A stretch of DNA of 64,000 nucleotides from Rectinemataceae bacterium. GTDB taxonomy: Bacteria; Spirochaetota; Spirochaetia; Treponematales; Rectinemataceae. The DNA lies in contig DATKTD010000340.1 in assembly GCA_035531315.1 (NCBI GenBank), forward strand, positions 4,731-68,730. Direction: 5' to 3'. The notes under the pieces were generated by a model. It saw nothing but the letters and a program-made list of their open reading frames with translations. It did no database searches and was not told the DNA's origin. Positions 26,924-33,635 of this stretch are shown here, in pieces. Within the stretch, counting starts at the first letter, position 1. Each line of letters begins with the position of its first letter. The translations under genes and the position numbers were made by a program.

Positions 26924-28831
26924 TCAGTCTCGGCCCGCCTCCGATCCGAGCACGATGCGATCGTCTCCGGATCGCCTAACGCGGCCATCGCGCTCCATGC
27001 GGTTGAGGAGTGGCAGTATCCACTTCCTCGAGAGCCCCGTCGCGGCCTTTGCCTCGCCGACGCCAAGACGGCTGCCCGCGGGCCTGTGCCCGACGAGGGC
27101 CTGGACGAAGGCCTGGTAGGCCTCCGGCGAGAGGAAGAGCCGTCCATCGAGGCTGATCGCCCGGCCCGCCCGACAGAGGACGCCGAGGGCGTTCTTCGCC
27201 CCCGCCGCGGCCTCGGGGCCCAGGTCCAGACCCTCGCTTCCCGCAGCCTCCAGTCTCCGGGCGAGTTCGGCGAGCGGCTTCGGCAGGGCCGGCGCGCCAG
27301 CCTCGGCCGCGGGCACTACCTGTTTGTTATTGACAATTATGATCTTTTCCGCCGCGAGCCGGCCGATCAAGGAGACCGCGGCCTCCAGGGGAATGCCGAG
27401 ACGGCCCGCGATGCCCTGTTCGGGAAAGCCGCCGGGCTCGCCAGCCGCGGCGACGACGGTGCGGACCGCCGATTTCCAGGATGTCTCCGAGAAGATCCAC
27501 TCGCCGGCCCTCTCACCCGAACGTGGCGCCACGATGCAGTCCTTGAACCGAAGGCATGCCGCGGCGCCCAGGTCGAAGTCCGCCTTCGCAAGGACCGTAT
27601 CGGGCAGATCCCCCTGGGCGAGGGCCAGGGCCTCCTCGATCTTCCGCCTCTCGCCGGCCTCGTGGCCGCCGATGAGAAAGGCGCTTCCCGAAGCCAGAAG
27701 CTCGGCTCCTCCCTTCTGGAGAAGCATCACGGCCTGGCCGAAGGCCACCGCCACCGACAGTTCCGGCGCCAGACGCAGAAAGCCTCCCGTACGCGACGGC
27801 CAGACCCGCGCGTCGCAATGAATGGTGCCGGTAGCCAACTCGAGGCTGACTCCCGCCCTCGGCCTGAATCCTCGCGATCCGGGATCGAGGGCCAGATATA
27901 GGGAACGCGCGGCGAAGTGACCGCTTCCCGCCGCGGCTAGGCAATTTCCGCGGCCGATCGAGGCTCCCGTTCTGGCGAAGGTGATGGCGACGCGGCTGCC
28001 GGGATCGGCGACGGCCACGGGTTCCCCGTATCGCTGGAGGCCGCGAACGCGCAACTTCTCGCCGGAAGGAAGGAGTTCGAGCTCGTCGCCTGCGCCGAGC
28101 CGCCCTCCCCTAAGGCTGCCGGCTACAACCTGTCCCGTCCCCGACAGAATGAATGAGCGATCCACATGGAGGAAGGGCGCGCCTTCGCTTCGCTTCGGAG
28201 CGAGCCTGGCGGGGGCGAAGGCAGGAACGGCGCCGAAGAAAGGGATGAGGCCGATTGGCGCCTTGCCGGAACGCCGATCCTCCGAGACGGCCTCCAGGTC
28301 GCGAATTCCCACGGCAAGCAGCGCGCGAAGCTCGGCTATGCCCTCGCCGCTCAGGGAATCGACGGCAATCCAGGGCGGGCTCCGACGGGTCTGCCCGGTG
28401 GCCCCCATAGCTCCCGTGGCCCCGATCTCGCCGAGCCGCGCCTCCGCCTCCTTGGCCACGAGCCTTGGCCGTCCTGGAGACACGATGGCGCTCTTGGTGA
28501 TGACGAGGGCGATGATGGGCACGCCGAGGGCGGCGAGCACCGCCGCGTGGCGCCTAGTCTGTTCCATCCAGCCATCGTCGGCGGCGATCACGAGCATGGC
28601 CCCGTCGACGCCCGAGGCACCCGCGACCATGTTGCGTATGTAGCGTTCATGCCCCGGGACGTCGATGACGCCGATCTGTATTCCCCCGCTTTCGAAGTGG
28701 GCGAAACCGAGGTCGGTGGTCATTCCCCGCGCCTTTTCCTCGGGAAGCCTGTCCGTGTCCATTCCCGTAAGGGCGGCGATGAGGGCCGTCTTGCCATGAT
28801 CGACATGGCCGGCCGTTCCGATGACGGGCAC
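26924..28831 (-). CDS. selB: selenocysteine-specific translation elongation factor SelB
   Basis: GTG start 2 nt after the selA stop. GTAGHVDHGKTALIAALTG, DVPGHERYIRNM, and a long C-terminal winged-helix region. 635 aa. Confidence 0.93.
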   Translation of the reverse strand: MPVIGTAGHVDHGKTALIAALTGMDTDRLPEEKARGMTTDLGFAHFESGGIQIGVIDVPGHERYIRNMVAGASGVDGAMLVIAADDGWMEQTRRHAAVLAALGVPIIALVITKSAIVSPGRPRLVAKEAEARLGEIGATGAMGATGQTRRSPPWIAVDSLSGEGIAELRALLAVGIRDLEAVSEDRRSGKAPIGLIPFFGAVPAFAPARLAPKRSEGAPFLHVDRSFILSGTGQVVAGSLRGGRLGAGDELELLPSGEKLRVRGLQRYGEPVAVADPGSRVAITFARTGASIGRGNCLAAAGSGHFAARSLYLALDPGSRGFRPRAGVSLELATGTIHCDARVWPSRTGGFLRLAPELSVAVAFGQAVMLLQKGGAELLASGSAFLIGGHEAGERRKIEEALALAQGDLPDTVLAKADFDLGAAACLRFKDCIVAPRSGERAGEWIFSETSWKSAVRTVVAAAGEPGGFPEQGIAGRLGIPLEAAVSLIGRLAAEKIIIVNNKQVVPAAEAGAPALPKPLAELARRLEAAGSEGLDLGPEAAAGAKNALGVLCRAGRAISLDGRLFLSPEAYQAFVQALVGHRPAGSRLGVGEAKAATGLSRKWILPLLNRMERDGRVRRSGDDRIVLGSEAGRD

Positions 28832-28833
28832 GT

Positions 28834-30288
28834 TCAGGAGCCTGCGGCCGGAATTTTTCCGCCGAGGGGGAATAGGGCGGCGCGAAGACTGTCGGCCACA
28901 AGGGCCGGATCCTCGCGATGGAGGGTGCCGAGATCGATGTGCAGCCTGCCCTCCCGTATCGTCGCGACGAGGGGCGGATCGACCGCGCGAAGGAGGGCGG
29001 CGGCCCGTGTCGGGCCTCCGAGCGCGGCGACCAAGACCTCATCGACGACGAGGGCGCGCGACGGGAAGCTCTCGTCGGGTTCCGTGCCTCCGCCCATCGT
29101 GCCGAGAGAGGGCACGAGACCGAAGGCTCCGCGGGGAAATCTTCGTCGCAGGGACCTGCCGAAGCGCTCCAGGACGGCGGTATCGGGAGGCATCGCCATG
29201 CCGACCTCCCCGTTGAGCCTCATAACCAGACGCCGCTCGAGGAGGGAGAGGATGGTCTTTCCGGGCCGAAGGGCCCTCGCCAAGGGATCGGCGGCCATGG
29301 CCGCGATGAGGTCGCGCCGTCCGGCGGCCAGACCCGCCTGTGGCCCTCCCAGGAGCTTGTCCCCCGAAAAGCAGACAAGGGTGGCTCCATCGCGGGCCAA
29401 ACGCGCAAGAGACGCCTCGCCGCCCCGGCCCTCCTCGCTGCAGCCCGAACCCTGATCCACGATGATGGGGAGTCCCGCGGGCAAGGCCGCCACCAGCTCG
29501 GCCAAGGTCGGCTTGGCGGTAAAACCGCGGATGGCGAAGTTGGAACCCTGCACGACGAGGACGCAGGCCGTGGCCTCGCCGACGGCCTTCCGGTAATCCG
29601 CGATCGTCGTCACGTTAGTCGTTCCCACTTCGACGAAGGATGCCCCCGAGAGGGCCAGAATCTCCGGAATGCGAAAGCCCCCGCCGATCTGCACCTGTTC
29701 GCCCCGAGAAACGATGACCTCCCGGCCCGAGGCCAGGGATCGCAGGGCCAGGAGGAGGGCACCAGCGTTATTGTTGAGGACGATGGCCGATTCCGCGCCC
29801 GCCAGTTCGGCGGCAAGGTCGGCGGCGAGGCCGCCGCGCCTGCCCCTCTCCCCGCTTTCGATATCCATCTCGAGATTGCAGTAGCCCGAGTTGACCCTCC
29901 AGGCGGCCTCCCATTCGTCGCGACCCAGGGGGCTTCGGCCGAGGTTGGTATGCAGCACCACCCCCGTGCCGTTGAGCACGGGGCGAAGGCCTCCCTTCGC
30001 CCGGGAGGCCAGGTCCGTGACGAGGGCGACGACGAAGGCATCGAGGTCCCGGGCCGCGTTCATGGACCGCCCGGAAAGGAGACTCGACGGCCGATCCCGA
30101 TCCGCGTCCGCAAGGTCGCGATGCCCGGAAAGCGAAGCATTGGGAACTTCGTCGCGCATCGCGGCCACCGCTTCGCGGACGAGGCGGGCAACCAGGGGCC
30201 GCGACAGGATGGGGAAGAAGGCGGCGATCTCGGGACGCTCGAGGAGGCGCCCGACCGCCGGTGGCCGCGACGAGGGGAGGTCTTTCAT
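28834..30288 (-). CDS. selA: L-seryl-tRNA(Sec) selenium transferase SelA
   Basis: Track ORF 28834..30360, trimmed to ATG 30288 (MKDLPSSRPPAVGRLLERPEIAAFF). LNGTGVVLHTNLGRSPL. FSGDKLLGGPQAGL (PLP lysine). Confidence 0.92.
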   Translation of the reverse strand: MKDLPSSRPPAVGRLLERPEIAAFFPILSRPLVARLVREAVAAMRDEVPNASLSGHRDLADADRDRPSSLLSGRSMNAARDLDAFVVALVTDLASRAKGGLRPVLNGTGVVLHTNLGRSPLGRDEWEAAWRVNSGYCNLEMDIESGERGRRGGLAADLAAELAGAESAIVLNNNAGALLLALRSLASGREVIVSRGEQVQIGGGFRIPEILALSGASFVEVGTTNVTTIADYRKAVGEATACVLVVQGSNFAIRGFTAKPTLAELVAALPAGLPIIVDQGSGCSEEGRGGEASLARLARDGATLVCFSGDKLLGGPQAGLAAGRRDLIAAMAADPLARALRPGKTILSLLERRLVMRLNGEVGMAMPPDTAVLERFGRSLRRRFPRGAFGLVPSLGTMGGGTEPDESFPSRALVVDEVLVAALGGPTRAAALLRAVDPPLVATIREGRLHIDLGTLHREDPALVADSLRAALFPLGGKIPAAGS

Positions 30289-30289
30289 A

Positions 30290-30378
30290 CGGAAGAGGCA
30301 GGAATCGGACCTGCCGTCGCGCGAGGCGCGACCGACGGTTTTGAAGACCGCGAGAGCCACCAGACCCCATCAACTTCC
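30290..30378 (-). tRNA. selC: tRNA-Sec (anticodon UCA), candidate
   Basis: Minus strand: GGAAGTTG-AT-GGGGTC-TGGT-GGCTCT-CG-CGGT-CTTCAAA-ACCG..-GTCGCGC-CTC-GCGCGAC-GG-CAGG-TCCGATT-CCTG-CCTCTTCC-G. It has a 6-bp D stem with a 4-nt loop, a UCA anticodon, a long variable arm and discriminator G. The acceptor stem has two internal mismatches (T-T, T-C) and the T-loop reads TCCGATT, so software confirmation is needed. Confidence 0.6.
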
Positions 30379-30384
30379 ATCATA

Positions 30385-30413
30385 ATTCTAAGAGTCGCCA
30401 TGAGCGGGGTCAA
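30385..30413 (-). promoter_or_regulatory. sigma-70-type promoter of selC
   Basis: Minus strand: TTGACC (30413-30408), a 17-nt spacer, TAGAAT (30390-30385), then 6 nt before the first G of the tRNA (30378). Confidence 0.65.
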
Positions 30414-30492: not shown

Positions 30493-31374
30493 TCAACGCC
30501 AGGTCAGGATGGCGAATTTGACGTTCGGATCGGCGGCCATCACCTGGGAAGAGCCGTCGAAGCTGCGGACGTCCTTCCAGCCGAGGCTCTCGGAGAGGAT
30601 CCACCACCAGGTCGTGGCGAGGACGCCCGAATCGCAATACACGATCGTCTCGACTCCCGGGGCGAGGCCCATTTTATTGACAATTCCCCCGAGTTCAGCC
30701 ACGGGTTTCACGAGGCCATCGGCCGTCGTGATCCAGCCGCTGGGCAGGGGGATGGCGCCGGGAAGATGGCCGGCCTGGGCCACGAAGGCCTGTTTGGTCA
30801 AGCCGAAATAGGTATCGTAGTTTCGGGCGTCCACGATCTGCGCGCCCTTGGCCCCGAGGATGGCGGCCTTGTCGGCGAAGTAGGCGGGGACCCACTTCAC
30901 GACGAAGCTGCCTTTCATCGCCTTGACCGGCTCTGTCTGCACCGCCTTCCCGGCCTTGATCCAGGCGGCGTAGCCCCCGTCGAGGATGGCCACGTTGTCG
31001 AGACCGGCATACTTGAGGGTCCAGCCGACGCGGGTGGCCCAGGCGAGACGGCTTCCGTCGCTCTCGACCACGACGACGAGAGAATCGGCCCCGACTCCCG
31101 CGGCCTGAAGGACGTCGGTGAGGTCGTCGGCGGGCGGAACCTCGTTGTTGATGCTGCCGTTCTTGACGTAGACGCTCGCGCCGATGACGTTGACCGAAGC
31201 GGGGATGTGACCCGCCTTGTAGTCCTCGACCTTGCGCATATCCATGATTACGAGCCGGGGATTGGACGCGGAGGCCTCGAGCCAGGCCGGATCCACGAAG
31301 GCCGCGATGTCCCGCGCCGAGGCCAACGGCGCGAGGACCGCCAGCCCGATCAACACTGCCAGTAGTTTCTTCAT
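30493..31374 (-). CDS. periplasmic two-domain rhodanese (thiosulfate sulfurtransferase-like)
   Basis: RBS GGAGGAGG. Signal peptide MKKLLAVLIGLAVLAPLASA. The N-terminal domain is inactive and the C-terminal domain has the catalytic loop VYCDSGVLAT. Confidence 0.85.
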   Translation of the reverse strand: MKKLLAVLIGLAVLAPLASARDIAAFVDPAWLEASASNPRLVIMDMRKVEDYKAGHIPASVNVIGASVYVKNGSINNEVPPADDLTDVLQAAGVGADSLVVVVESDGSRLAWATRVGWTLKYAGLDNVAILDGGYAAWIKAGKAVQTEPVKAMKGSFVVKWVPAYFADKAAILGAKGAQIVDARNYDTYFGLTKQAFVAQAGHLPGAIPLPSGWITTADGLVKPVAELGGIVNKMGLAPGVETIVYCDSGVLATTWWWILSESLGWKDVRSFDGSSQVMAADPNVKFAILTWR

Positions 31375-31386
31375 GTCACCCTCCTC

Positions 31387-32607
31387 CTATTTTTCGAAAG
31401 TGAAAATGAGCTTGTCGTTGGCCGCGGAGCCGCCCGCCGGCAGACTCCCGGCGTCCAGGAAATGCTCCCGCCTGTCGTGGCAGGTCGAGCAGTCGCGGGT
31501 CCTGTCCGTCCGCTTCTTCGTGTTATGCGGCACGGTGTCCCAGAAATTCGGAAGGGCGTCGAAGGAACTCGAGGCTATGCCCGCCTTCGCGAAAGTATCG
31601 CGGACCGCCGGCACCAGCCTCAGGGTGCTGAGCTGGCCGGGCTTCCTCGGATTGTTACCGAGCACGAACTGCGGGCTTGCGCTCGCCCCCTCGCCGAGAT
31701 GGCAGGAGGAGCAGCCCCTGTATTCGCTCGACGAATGGCAGGCCGAACAGGAAACCTTGTCGCCGTGGATCGCGTGGGCCTGACTGCCCTTGTCGGTCGT
31801 CTCGGAGCCGGGAGCGTGGCAGGCGGAGCAGCTCGGCTTCTCGGCGACCGACCTCCTGTCGGGATAGGCGACACCCCTGCCGTGGAGCTCGAGCGGGCGA
31901 TGGCAATCCACGCAGCCCATGCCGTTCTGGTAGTGGATGTCGGCGTTGCCGCCGTAATCGCCGGTGAATTCCGGATAGACCCTCCCGCCGTGACAGAGGG
32001 CGCAGGTCTTGCCCTCGTCCTTGCGGATGAACTTGTGTCCGGCGATGAGCCCGAGATCGACGCCGGAAACCGTGGGGCTCTTGACGTGGCAGTCGCCGCA
32101 GGTCGCGTGACAGGAGCGGCAGGATTGCTCGAAAACCTTCTTGTCAAAGATCGCCGACTCGGCCGCGGAAAAACGCGGACGAACGCCGTTTTTCATGCCG
32201 GAGTCCGTGAAATGAAGGGACAGGGAATAGTCGCGCGCGATGTCACCGTGGCAGGGAGCGCAGGTCGAGGGATTGTCCGAGGGCCTCTTGATGAGACCGA
32301 CATGGGCCTTCGCCTTTTCGCCGGCGCCTTCGTCACCTCCATGACAGGAGACGCAGCCTTGGCTGAGATGGGGATCGCTCTTGATCAGGGAGGCGTCGAC
32401 GACGAGTCCCTTGTATAGTTCTTCCGCCCGAACCGGGGGAGGAGCGCCAGCTCAGCCCTCGGCCTCGGACTCGACGATCGGAGGAGGCAGATAGAGGGCC
32501 TTCATCTTCGCGTCGTCCGAATGACAGGCGACGCAGGTAGACCCCCCGGCATAGGCGCCAATTCCCGCCAGGGCAAGTCCGGCCACCAGAAATATGGATC
32601 GTTTCAT
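31387..32607 (-). CDS. undecahaem c-type cytochrome with one in-frame UGA (candidate selenocysteine at residue 52)
   Basis: ATG 32607 has AGGAGG 8 nt upstream. Signal peptide MKRSIFLVAGLALAGIGAYA. The only in-frame stop is TGA at 32454-32452, and the frame continues into track ORF 31387..32196. There are 11 CxxCH motifs: CVACH, CVSCH, CAPCH, CRSCH, CGDCH, CALCH, CVDCH, CSACH x2, CSSCH, CSTCH. The C-terminal 269 aa is certainly a multihaem cytochrome; the read-through is inference. Confidence 0.72.
32422..32443 (-). promoter_or_regulatory. candidate SECIS-like hairpin downstream of the in-frame UGA
   Basis: mRNA: UGA GCU GGC GCU CCU CCC CCG GUU CGG GCG GAA. A CCC/GGG (or CCCG/CGGG) apical stem closes a GGUUC (or GUU) loop and is extended by CC/GG and U/A pairs across a bulged C. 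The loop starts ~17 nt after the UGA. The structure is weak and hand-folded. Confidence 0.35.
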
Positions 32608-32637
32608 CCACTACCTCCTGTGAGTGTCGTTGCCACA

Positions 32638-32665
32638 ACTATAGTAAAGAAAATATTAAATGCAA
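32638..32665 (-). promoter_or_regulatory. putative sigma-70-type promoter of the cytochrome-rhodanese operon inside an AT-rich island
   Basis: Minus strand: TTGCAT (32665-32660), a 16-nt spacer, TATAGT (32643-32638), leaving a ~25-nt leader with AGGAGG. Confidence 0.35.
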
Positions 32666-32762
32666 ATATATAAATATATTTTCATCTATATAAGTCCAAG
32701 ACCTTGTTGAACTCCCCAGACTTGGTCCCGAAAGTGGGGATCGGGGCAACAATTCACGATCC

Positions 32763-33635
32763 ATGCCAAGGATGCGATTGTGCGGTATATTCACGACCAT
32801 GCGTCACTACACAGCGCCGACCATTGCGGCGCGCCTCGGCATTTTTTTCCTTTTTCTGGCGATGGGCTTCGCCGCCTCGGCCCAGGCGGCAAGCGCGGCC
32901 CCCGGCCGGCTTCCTAGCGTCGCGGCCCTTCTTGGCGAAACCACGGCGGCCGAACTCGCCTCGGGGGGCAAAGCCACGCGGACGGACACCCATGGCTTCC
33001 TCGGCCTCCTCCCCAAGGATGCCGCGGCCGAATCGCTCCGGGCCCTCATCGCCGCCGACAAGCCGGCCATCCTCGTCGAATCCGTCTTCACCCTGCCCAG
33101 GGTCGCGCCGGAGGGCGCGGCAGGCATTGCCGCGGAAATGGCGCGCATCTACGGCCTGATGCGGTCCTTCTCGTCGCTCGAAGGCATCGAATACTACTCC
33201 GCCTCGCGGAAAAAGATGCGGACCTTCTATGCCGAGTCCTGGCCCATCGCGGATGCCGAGACCAAGACCCGTCTTCCCGATCTTCCGGCCCCCGAGGCAG
33301 GAGCCATCCCCGCCACGGAGCGCATCACCGTCTGGCAGAAGGATCTGACCTTCGGCGGCAACGTATACAGCTACGATTTCGCCTCGTCCGCCGGGACCCT
33401 CCGGGTCATGTCGACCAACCTGACGCGGATGAGCTATGGCCCCATCCCGCTGATCGCCCCCCTCGGTCTCAAGTCCCGCCTCCTCGTCATCCAGGCCGAG
33501 GACGCAATCGTGTTCTACGTCGAGAGCGACGCGAAGGCGCCCGGCCTCTTCTCGGGCCGGATAGGCGAATCCTTTTCCAACAGGGCCGCGGCCCTCTTCG
33601 CCTGGTTTTCGGACAGACTCCCGAAGTACCGCTAG
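32763..33635 (+). CDS. hypothetical secreted protein
   Basis: Signal peptide MRHYTAPTIAARLGIFFLFLAMGFAASAQA (alternative start ATG 32799). I recognised no motif. Composition is protein-like (SLEGIEYYSASRKKMRTFYAESWPI). Confidence 0.6.
   Translation: MPRMRLCGIFTTMRHYTAPTIAARLGIFFLFLAMGFAASAQAASAAPGRLPSVAALLGETTAAELASGGKATRTDTHGFLGLLPKDAAAESLRALIAADKPAILVESVFTLPRVAPEGAAGIAAEMARIYGLMRSFSSLEGIEYYSASRKKMRTFYAESWPIADAETKTRLPDLPAPEAGAIPATERITVWQKDLTFGGNVYSYDFASSAGTLRVMSTNLTRMSYGPIPLIAPLGLKSRLLVIQAEDAIVFYVESDAKAPGLFSGRIGESFSNRAAALFAWFSDRLPKYR

Follow-up and report, generated by a model that had tools for sequence, protein, structure and literature searches.

In a 64,000-nucleotide stretch of DNA from a Rectinemataceae bacterium of the Spirochaetota (contig DATKTD010000340.1, positions 4,731 to 68,730, hereafter the window), we identified a gene for an eleven-haem c-type cytochrome that is interrupted at codon 52 by a single in-frame UGA and is followed by a gene for a rhodanese-type sulfurtransferase. 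The UGA is almost certainly a genuine selenocysteine (Sec) codon. This assignment follows from the conservation of the TGA across phyla, a hairpin under RNA-level constraint on its 3' side, Cys homologues without the hairpin, adjacent Sec machinery, and the use of TGA as a normal stop otherwise. The cytochrome belongs to a large and widespread selenoprotein family, eleven-haem with a rhodanese partner, that is apparently undescribed, judged on the open-access literature and model libraries. We consider it fairly probable that the 406-residue product is a periplasmic Sec cytochrome which, paired with the rhodanese, acts as a chalcogen reductase.

The gene occupies a single frame on the minus strand, from the ATG at 32607 to the TAG at 31389-31387, with 406 sense codons and one internal stop, the TGA at 32454-32452. 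The initial annotation, made from the window sequence alone, had described this frame with its single UGA, and our reading agrees with it. There are a total of 11 CxxCH haem motifs, as it had claimed, one before and ten after the TGA. It had also pointed to 85 start-free codons past the TGA, and these are present (32451-32197, with two CxxCH motifs); the first ATG, GTG or TTG 3' of the TGA in the open reading frame (ORF) listing is at 32196. A signal-peptide-like stretch, MKRSIFLVAGLALAGIGAYA followed by GG as read from the sequence, lies at the true N-terminus only, in keeping with the claimed absence of a second signal peptide after the UGA. The AGGAGG reported upstream of the ATG is there, with a spacing of 6 nt and not the 8 nt given. 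TGA was described as a normal stop elsewhere in the window; it is in fact the most frequent one (64/104 long open frames), ending the rhodanese, selA, selB, carA and carB genes among others; a TGA-sense genetic code in the host is ruled out by this usage. The cytochrome matches Cytochrome_C7 and Cytochrom_c3_2 in Pfam, and neither NCBIfam release 20 nor Pfam holds a specific model for the eleven-haem Sec cytochrome family. Family members carry no other labels than 'cytochrome c3 family protein', 'hypothetical protein' or 'thiosulfate/3-mercaptopyruvate sulfurtransferase' in the source databases. The public entry P0003, from a Rectinemataceae metagenome-assembled genome (Spirochaetota), is a 269-residue 'cytochrome c3 family protein' that corresponds to the shortened ORF 31387-32196.

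A protein search returned more than 500 homologue clusters, nearly all annotated at about 340 residues and starting just past the UGA position. We re-read the homologues at the DNA level and scanned one genome per species, finding relatives in at least 482 genomes. The 80 best genome loci were used for the aligned-codon count, and 83 loci with their read-through proteins for neighbour and motif counts. The codon aligned with codon 52 is TGA in 80/80 loci, which come from Spirochaetota, Desulfobacterota and Nitrospirota (Rectinemataceae, Treponemataceae, Syntrophales/Smithella, Syntrophorhabdaceae, Geobacteraceae/Desulfuromonadales and Nitrospirota). It stands in the context ...EGEG-TGA-AG[A/P/T]PP[P/S]V..., in frame after a signal peptide and the first CxxCH, and both the reading frame and the protein sequence are conserved on either side of it. 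An in-frame stop at the homologous codon in all of these loci is far beyond chance. The layout of signal peptide and CxxCH 5' of the TGA is kept in the 83 read-through homologues, and the motif of the family is G-E-G-U-[A/G]-G-x-x-P. The homologues do not terminate at this codon and re-initiate as a separate downstream gene. Distant clades at ∼35-45% identity have the same in-frame arrangement of signal peptide, CxxCH and GEG-TGA-GG (metagenome contigs L086 and L087, L089 from Phycisphaerae and L090 from Eisenbacteria), and loci L083 and L084 also carry the in-frame TGA. A second in-frame stop is found in a Spirochaetota metagenome-assembled genome (L019, ∼200-280, …NPATM, stop, KLV…) where relatives have Gln; it probably reflects an error in sequencing or the decay of this copy.

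Two database entries have Trp at the Sec position (P0014, L083:315-317; P0037, L084:216-218), yet the DNA reads TGA in both, the gene callers having used a TGA-sense code. They were therefore rejected as genuine non-Sec forms, and entries of this type could mislead searches for such homologues. Cys homologues were found by a profile scan of 1.84 billion representative proteins that returned 954 relatives: in nine distant relatives of full length the residue in the Sec column itself is Cys (as in GEG-C-GGTVPEMEAW), and in three more a Cys stands within two columns of it. One of the nine, L091/P0184, uses the codon TGT. The initial annotation had proposed a search for homologues with Cys or an in-frame TGA at the aligned position, and both kinds thus exist. 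When the search was seeded by one Cys form, its neighbours were mostly shortened entries, and the two that were checked in DNA have an in-frame TGA. By this comparison Sec dominates the family, and the forms with Cys appear to have branched off from it only rarely. Other replacements are Arg (CGA, L081:5178), Ala (L082:1325 and L085:823, the latter GCA) and Trp (TGG, L088, entry P0152); CGA and TGG are each one base away from TGA. L081 and L082 lie in a different operon, followed by a gene for a 655-residue multihaem cytochrome.

We aligned 75 distinct sequences from the UGA onward, numbering columns from its U, and found a putative selenocysteine insertion sequence (SECIS) hairpin inside the coding sequence (Table 1). 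The hairpin begins 12-15 nt 3' of the UGA, its loop spans columns 21-26, and G22-U23 within the loop is invariant, as are the pairs 16:31, 17:30 and 20:27. Pair 19:28 occurs as C-G (49 sequences), U-G (18) and G-C (2), and pair 18:29 as G-C (46) and U-A (one, L060, a compensatory change), with a C·C mismatch in the 28 that have a CCC Pro codon, the window sequence included; for these an alternative register with a bulged C29 is the minimum free energy (MFE) fold. In all variants tested the hairpin is the MFE fold. Constraint at the RNA level is seen at column 27, which is G in 75/75 despite six codons (CGG, CCG, AAG, TCG, AGG and CAG), and at column 30, also G in 75/75, where Ala is always encoded by GCG (67/67 Ala codons). 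Wobble bases outside the stem are near random (1.4-2.0 bits), and the Ala codon at columns 4-6 takes all four synonyms. In L037 and L061 the C19-G28 pair has become G-C through a paired Pro-to-Ala and Ala-to-Pro swap in the peptide; to judge from the alignment, the protein sequence is bent here to keep the RNA pair.

Stems of clearly different sequence occur at the same place in the distant clades, each with G-U in the loop (GGCUCC/GGAGCC, CCCCC/GGGGG, GCCUC/GAGGC and UACCUC/GAGGUA), and the last two, from L089 and L090, differ by a compensatory G-C to A-U change. The stems are broken or decayed in the Sec-less loci L081 (CGA), L085 (GCA) and L091 (TGT). RNAalifold recovers the invariant stem core only, and a search of Rfam gave nothing relevant to the hairpin at the gathering threshold, nor at E up to 10. 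The putative SECIS assignment is comparative, but strong. The SECIS of Escherichia coli fdhF is an in-ORF hairpin ∼11-12 nt after the UGA, with an apical-loop G-U ∼17-20 nt downstream, and it constrains the encoded peptide. The window hairpin resembles it in lying within the ORF, in its similar onset, in its apical G-U and in constraining the peptide. Unlike the fdhF element, the stem in this family is very short (5-7 bp) and G+C-rich, without an evident bulged U, and it has no Rfam model.

The genes for Sec insertion follow on the same strand. The initial annotation had placed selC, selA and selB downstream, and ARAGORN, the Rfam model RF01852, TIGR00474 and TIGR00475 recover all three (Table 1). 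The likely selA ATG, at 30288, starts one base past the 3' end of tRNA-Sec, and selC-selA-selB seem to make up a separate compact unit downstream of the cytochrome and rhodanese genes. We did not find selD within the 64-kb window; it adjoins the module in 8 related loci. tRNA-Sec lies next to the module in 12 of 60 scanned loci, all 12 of them spirochaetes; SelA does so in 11 loci and SelB in 9.

A reading without Sec would take the UGA either for a real stop, with two genes, a pseudogene or an assembly error as the cause, or for a codon that a standard tRNA decodes as Trp, Cys or Gly. It would fit the practice of gene callers and NCBI, which annotate the downstream part alone (P0003), the rendering of the TGA as Trp by some pipelines (P0014 and P0037), and the true TGG of the distant relative L088. 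However, the 85 codons past the TGA offer no start and no second signal peptide, the TGA recurs at the same codon in 80/80 independent assemblies from several phyla with coding sequence conserved on both sides, the hairpin 3' of it is constrained as RNA, the Sec machinery is adjacent, and TGA ends the neighbouring genes. We regard the reading without Sec as highly improbable. Comparative evidence thus shows recoding of UGA-52 as Sec, and every one of the comparative tests supports the proposal of a multihaem cytochrome with Sec at this position.

Eleven CxxCH motifs are present in 82/83 reconstructed read-through proteins, and the same nine non-motif His residues are conserved, each in at least 32 of 34 full-length superfamily members. 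Eleven motifs set against nine conserved distal His leave two haems without a conserved His distal ligand, a feature characteristic, in sequence terms, of multihaem proteins with a catalytic function rather than of those that only conduct electrons. M230 is conserved in 25/34 members and K200 and K365 are not conserved, so that none of the three qualifies as a universal haem ligand across the superfamily. Sec52 falls on a Gly/Pro-rich loop, 22 residues past haem 1. The AlphaFold2 model has a predicted local distance difference test (pLDDT) score of 74.7 and a predicted template modelling (pTM) score of 0.70; its confidence is moderate overall, but it is unreliable for residues 1-68. Foldseek found no significant neighbour of the model in the PDB, the best being the octahaem tetrathionate reductase (OTR) structure 1sp3 (E 1.3, TM 0.27), and sequence and profile searches against the PDB gave local matches to haem-motif arrays only (5ze8, UndA 3ucp and NrfB).

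Across the 34 superfamily members the Sec column holds Cys in 9 and Ala, Tyr, Trp, Ser or other residues elsewhere. A chalcogen is therefore not universal at this position, which makes a compulsory structural ligand of a haem less likely and favours a catalytic residue specific to the subfamily; on balance, the distribution over the superfamily points to Sec as a nucleophile. The alternative is that Sec52 is the axial ligand of a haem without conserved distal His, giving a His/Sec haem c of very low potential or a catalytic centre comparable to those of TsdA, SoxAX and haem 2 of MccSep, a multihaem c-type selenoprotein and polysulfide reductase of Geobacter sulfurreducens (Mihara et al., Sci Adv 2026, PMC13510729). 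The shortage of conserved distal His would accommodate such a ligand, and Sec (or Cys in the Cys forms) is the only chalcogen candidate, as the protein has no conserved non-haem Cys. His/Cys-ligated haems are moreover catalytic in related enzymes of sulfur metabolism, TsdA and SoxAX among them (PMC13510729). A structurally required ligand should, however, not be as dispensable as the residues in the column indicate, Ala in the close homologues L082 and L085 included; the Sec of MccSep is not a haem ligand (PMC13510729), and model confidence in the Sec region is too low to be used. Ligation of a haem by Sec52 is in our judgement improbable, and we prefer Sec52 as a catalytic nucleophile.

The rhodanese gene is immediately downstream of the cytochrome gene, on the same strand, in 75/83 loci, and also in every distant Sec-type locus examined (L083, L086, L087, L089 and L090), so that the partnership, too, is shown by comparison. 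Each rhodanese has a signal peptide, and Cys247, in the YCDxG loop of the C-terminal domain, is invariant. Natural cytochrome-rhodanese fusions exist among distant relatives (P0149 and P0174). In the Phycisphaerae locus (L089:4131-5342, plus strand) the rhodanese carries fused domains of monohaem cytochrome c (PF00034 and PF13442), a further hint, from domain content, of a role of the rhodanese in electron transfer. The JGI/IMG label 'thiosulfate/3-mercaptopyruvate sulfurtransferase' is attached to shortened cytochromes without a rhodanese domain (P0005, P0011, P0077, P0111, P0259, P0287 and others); the name was probably carried over from rhodanese genes that are fused or adjacent to such cytochrome genes.

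Based on the periplasmic location, the eleven haems of which two lack a conserved distal His, the Sec on a Gly/Pro loop, and the rhodanese partner with its catalytic Cys, we infer that the cytochrome is a chalcogen reductase. By analogy with known systems, it would most likely be a Sec-dependent periplasmic reductase of sulfane sulfur or polysulfide, and possibly of selenite too. Our inferences on the substrate, on the reaction direction and on what Sec does chemically draw on MccSep with its neighbour ExtH and on the Sud-Psr system of Wolinella, where Sud, a periplasmic carrier of the rhodanese type, delivers polysulfide sulfur to the reductase (PMC13510729). In the mechanism that we propose, SelB and tRNA-Sec would decode the UGA of codon 52 under the direction of the short SECIS hairpin in the coding sequence. 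The rhodanese would hold sulfane sulfur as a persulfide on Cys247, and its cargo could be polysulfide or selenite-derived selenium. The selenolate of Sec52, on its flexible loop near haem 1, would then attack the S-S (or S-Se) bond to form a Se-S adduct, which electrons arriving through the eleven-haem chain would reduce with release of sulfide (or selenide). The thiol partner may come in trans from the rhodanese, the cytochrome having no haem-ligating Cys.

A more far-reaching version of this proposal, which we put forward tentatively and hold to be possible but doubtful, is that the pair represents a second, independent pairing of Sec with multihaem chemistry in which the active site is split over two proteins, a transient Sec52-S(n)-Cys247 bridge being reduced by the haem wire. 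In its boldest form Sec52 would ligate haem iron, as the first natural His/Sec haem. In spirochaetes the module would move as one island that includes ResB/CcsA and the Sec-insertion genes. ResB-like and CcsA-like cytochrome c biogenesis genes lie divergently upstream of the module in 22-26 spirochaete loci (L002-L077; for example L022:2055-3017 and L017:3991-4791, both on the minus strand). Together with selC, selA, selB and selD they form a self-sufficient island around the module in spirochaetes. Neither ResB nor CcsA was found within the 64-kb window.

The neighbourhood also suggests a role in selenium acquisition, in which the pair would reduce selenite or Se(0)/selenotrisulfides in the periplasm and the rhodanese would provide perselenide for uptake, feeding SelD and Sec synthesis. 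Such a role would explain why the module sits beside selC-selA-selB(-selD) in spirochaetes, directly upstream of selC, selA and selB in the window and next to one or more of these genes in the related loci counted above. It would agree with the reduction of selenite by MccSep in vitro (PMC13510729), and with weak NCBIfam matches of the cytochrome and the rhodanese to the 'selenite/tellurite reduction operon' proteins ExtM (NF040943, 33.6 bits vs a cutoff of 800), ExtN (NF040967, 27.9 vs 200) and ExtH, the ExtM and ExtN scores being below their cutoffs. A gene for an ArsP_1-family permease (PF03773) lies no more than a few kb from the module in 11 loci, among them that of the isolate Geobacter sp. 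OR-1 (L038:9116-10063, plus strand) and L074:7435-8466 (minus strand), and an ACR3-like arsenite carrier is near it in 8; the module may thus be connected with the transport of arsenic or selenium, but the indication is weak, as strand and distance vary. The sel linkage, however, is confined to one phylum, being absent from the Desulfobacterota, Nitrospirota, Phycisphaerae and Eisenbacteria loci, and joint transfer of a selenoprotein gene and the machinery that it requires would explain it equally well. An eleven-haem chain is also large for the assimilation of a trace element, and the enzyme would need selenium to acquire selenium. We consider selenium acquisition unlikely as the function, and continue to favour a chalcogen reductase of the kind described above.

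Several observations weigh against this interpretation. No non-haem Cys is conserved in the cytochrome, either in the read-through proteins or in the 34 superfamily members, so the mechanism of MccSep, with a Cys-ligated haem beside the Sec, cannot apply as such. The pLDDT is below 50 for residues 41-68, the region of the Sec site. We found no quinol dehydrogenase or other electron donor conserved beside the module in the Geobacter sp. OR-1, Syntrophorhabdaceae and Nitrospirota loci, or across phyla. Close homologues without a chalcogen at the Sec position exist (Ala in L082 and L085, Arg in L081), and some family members evidently function, or decay, without Sec. The folding energy of the hairpin is not better than that of shuffled sequences (z -0.35 to -1.4), and a longer 66-nt piece gives z +1.25. 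The covariation score exceeds that of shuffles (1 of 500 shuffles) and the pair-type counts do not, most pairs being invariant, so that formal covariation is modest. As energies are uninformative for a short GC-rich RNA, the case for the SECIS rests on the comparative data.

Table 1. Features of the cytochrome-rhodanese-sel region, in window coordinates
Feature	Position	Strand	Evidence or remark
Candidate sigma-70-like promoter, TTTGCA-17 nt-TATAGT	32638..32666	-	9/12 consensus matches in AT-rich intergenic DNA; called from the consensus match alone
Ribosome-binding site AGGAGG, 6 nt 5' of ATG 32607	32614..32619	-	Read from sequence
Coding sequence part 1, codons 1-51: signal peptide ~1-20, haem-1 motif C25-V-A-C-H29, conserved TMKxL..PP...EGEG lead-in	32455..32607	-	
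In-frame UGA, read as Sec codon 52	32452..32454	-	TGA at aligned codon of homologues
Putative SECIS hairpin UCCCCC-GGUUCG-GGCGGA, columns 15-32, inside coding sequence	32423..32440	-	Comparative
Coding sequence part 2, codons 53-406 and TAG: ten CxxCH, nine conserved distal His	31387..32451	-	
Periplasmic tandem-rhodanese sulfurtransferase with its own signal peptide	30493..31374	-	PF00581 twice, 99.6 bits; starts 12 nt past cytochrome stop
selC promoter-like site TTGACC-17 nt-TAGAAT	30385-30413	-	Strong, with 10/12 consensus matches; just 5' of the tRNA
tRNA-Sec (selC), anticodon UCA	30289..30379	-	ARAGORN; RF01852, 61.2 bits
selA	28834..30288	-	L-seryl-tRNA(Sec) selenium transferase; TIGR00474, 386.5 bits vs cutoff 267.9
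selB	26924..28831	-	Sec-specific elongation factor; TIGR00475, 213 bits, below the cutoff of 242 but best match; GTP_EFTU and winged-helix PF09107

A DUF6675 gene (178 bits) at 32763-33635 on the plus strand is divergent from the cytochrome promoter region and is not conserved beside the module elsewhere. In 11 mostly deltaproteobacterial (Desulfobacterota) loci a gene for a 655-residue multihaem cytochrome lies beside the module.

The enzymology of selenium beside haem so far comprises one characterised family, MccSep, published in 2025-2026. An unrelated and larger family with another architecture means that Sec and multihaem wires have been paired more than once in nature, and it provides a second system for asking what selenium does beside haems. 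The family, present in at least 482 species-level genomes from several phyla, is almost universally annotated in a shortened form without its signal peptide; because of this misannotation, selenoproteome censuses, cytochrome counts and metabolic reconstructions miss it. The lineages affected are Syntrophales, Syntrophorhabdaceae, Geobacterales, Nitrospirota and above all Spirochaetota. The constant presence of the rhodanese, like the natural fusions, suggests sulfur or selenium chemistry in the periplasm, which is testable, and a cultured carrier, Geobacter sp. OR-1 (locus L038), makes the family experimentally addressable. If the proposal is true, the spirochaete island would give nominally fermentative lineages a capability for periplasmic chalcogen redox chemistry.

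Multihaem selenoproteins as such are known already; the eleven-haem family, its architecture and its Sec site appear to be new. The initial annotation knew of no multihaem cytochromes among the established selenoprotein families, a point that needs revision, as they now form such a class: besides MccSep/ExtKL (PMC13510729) there are two annotated families (PMC13188914), and the window protein belongs to none of them. A review of selenoproteins in prokaryotes, published in 2026, counts three families of cytochrome type, ExtKL (NF040886), the GSU2204 family (NF041027) and the OTR-family octahaem proteins (TIGR04315, with a GenBank-annotated Sec form) (PMC13188914), and a 2007 paper on stop-codon mining reported GSU2937+2936 only. 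For the eleven-haem Sec cytochromes themselves, our search of the open-access literature found only the MccSep/ExtKL work. The window protein has no match to NF040886 at E up to 0.01 and none to NF041027, and it scores 17.4 bits with TIGR04315, the tetrathionate reductase family octahaem model, against a cutoff of 375 and over 70 residues only. It shares with the TIGR04315 and NF041027 families the combination of c-type haems with one Sec. The two MccSep structures, 9wt8 and 9wt9, are both in the PDB set that we searched; a single-sequence phmmer search found no similarity to them at E up to 10, and they were not among the best 60 matches of a 108-sequence family profile.

MccSep, which is ExtKL (GSU2937-2936), is a pentahaem protein whose Sec (residue 325) belongs to a D-G-U-P loop in an Ig-like domain at the C-terminus, and it has a strictly conserved Cys239 that ligates haem 2 beside the Sec (PMC13510729). 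Its ext gene cluster also contains the gene for a rhodanese-like protein, ExtH (PMC13510729; PMC5877670). Like MccSep, the window protein is a multihaem cytochrome of c type located in the periplasm, in which one in-frame UGA, followed by a SECIS-like hairpin, specifies the only Sec; its gene, too, is split by annotators. In both cases Sec forms dominate and Cys offshoots are rare, the Sec lies in a Gly-U-(Pro-rich) loop, a rhodanese-type protein is encoded nearby, and the hosts are anaerobes of the sulfur cycle. Unlike MccSep, with its five haems, the window protein has eleven, and its Sec is at residue 52, just past haem 1, in the context E-G-U-A-G. A counterpart of the haem-ligating Cys239 is missing from the eleven-haem family, as noted above, and the range of the family includes Spirochaetota, Phycisphaerae and Eisenbacteria. 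On these sequence comparisons the eleven-haem cytochrome is like MccSep in broad logic and is not a member of the MccSep family, comparative evidence showing the two to be non-homologous. With TsdA, SoxAX and Sud-Psr it would share the logic of a chalcogen nucleophile and c-type haems acting on S-S chemistry, with a rhodanese-type carrier. It has no sequence relationship to these systems; its chalcogen is Sec, whose ligation of a haem is only hypothesised. Unlike Psr, which is a molybdoenzyme, the reductase proposed here would be an eleven-haem cytochrome.

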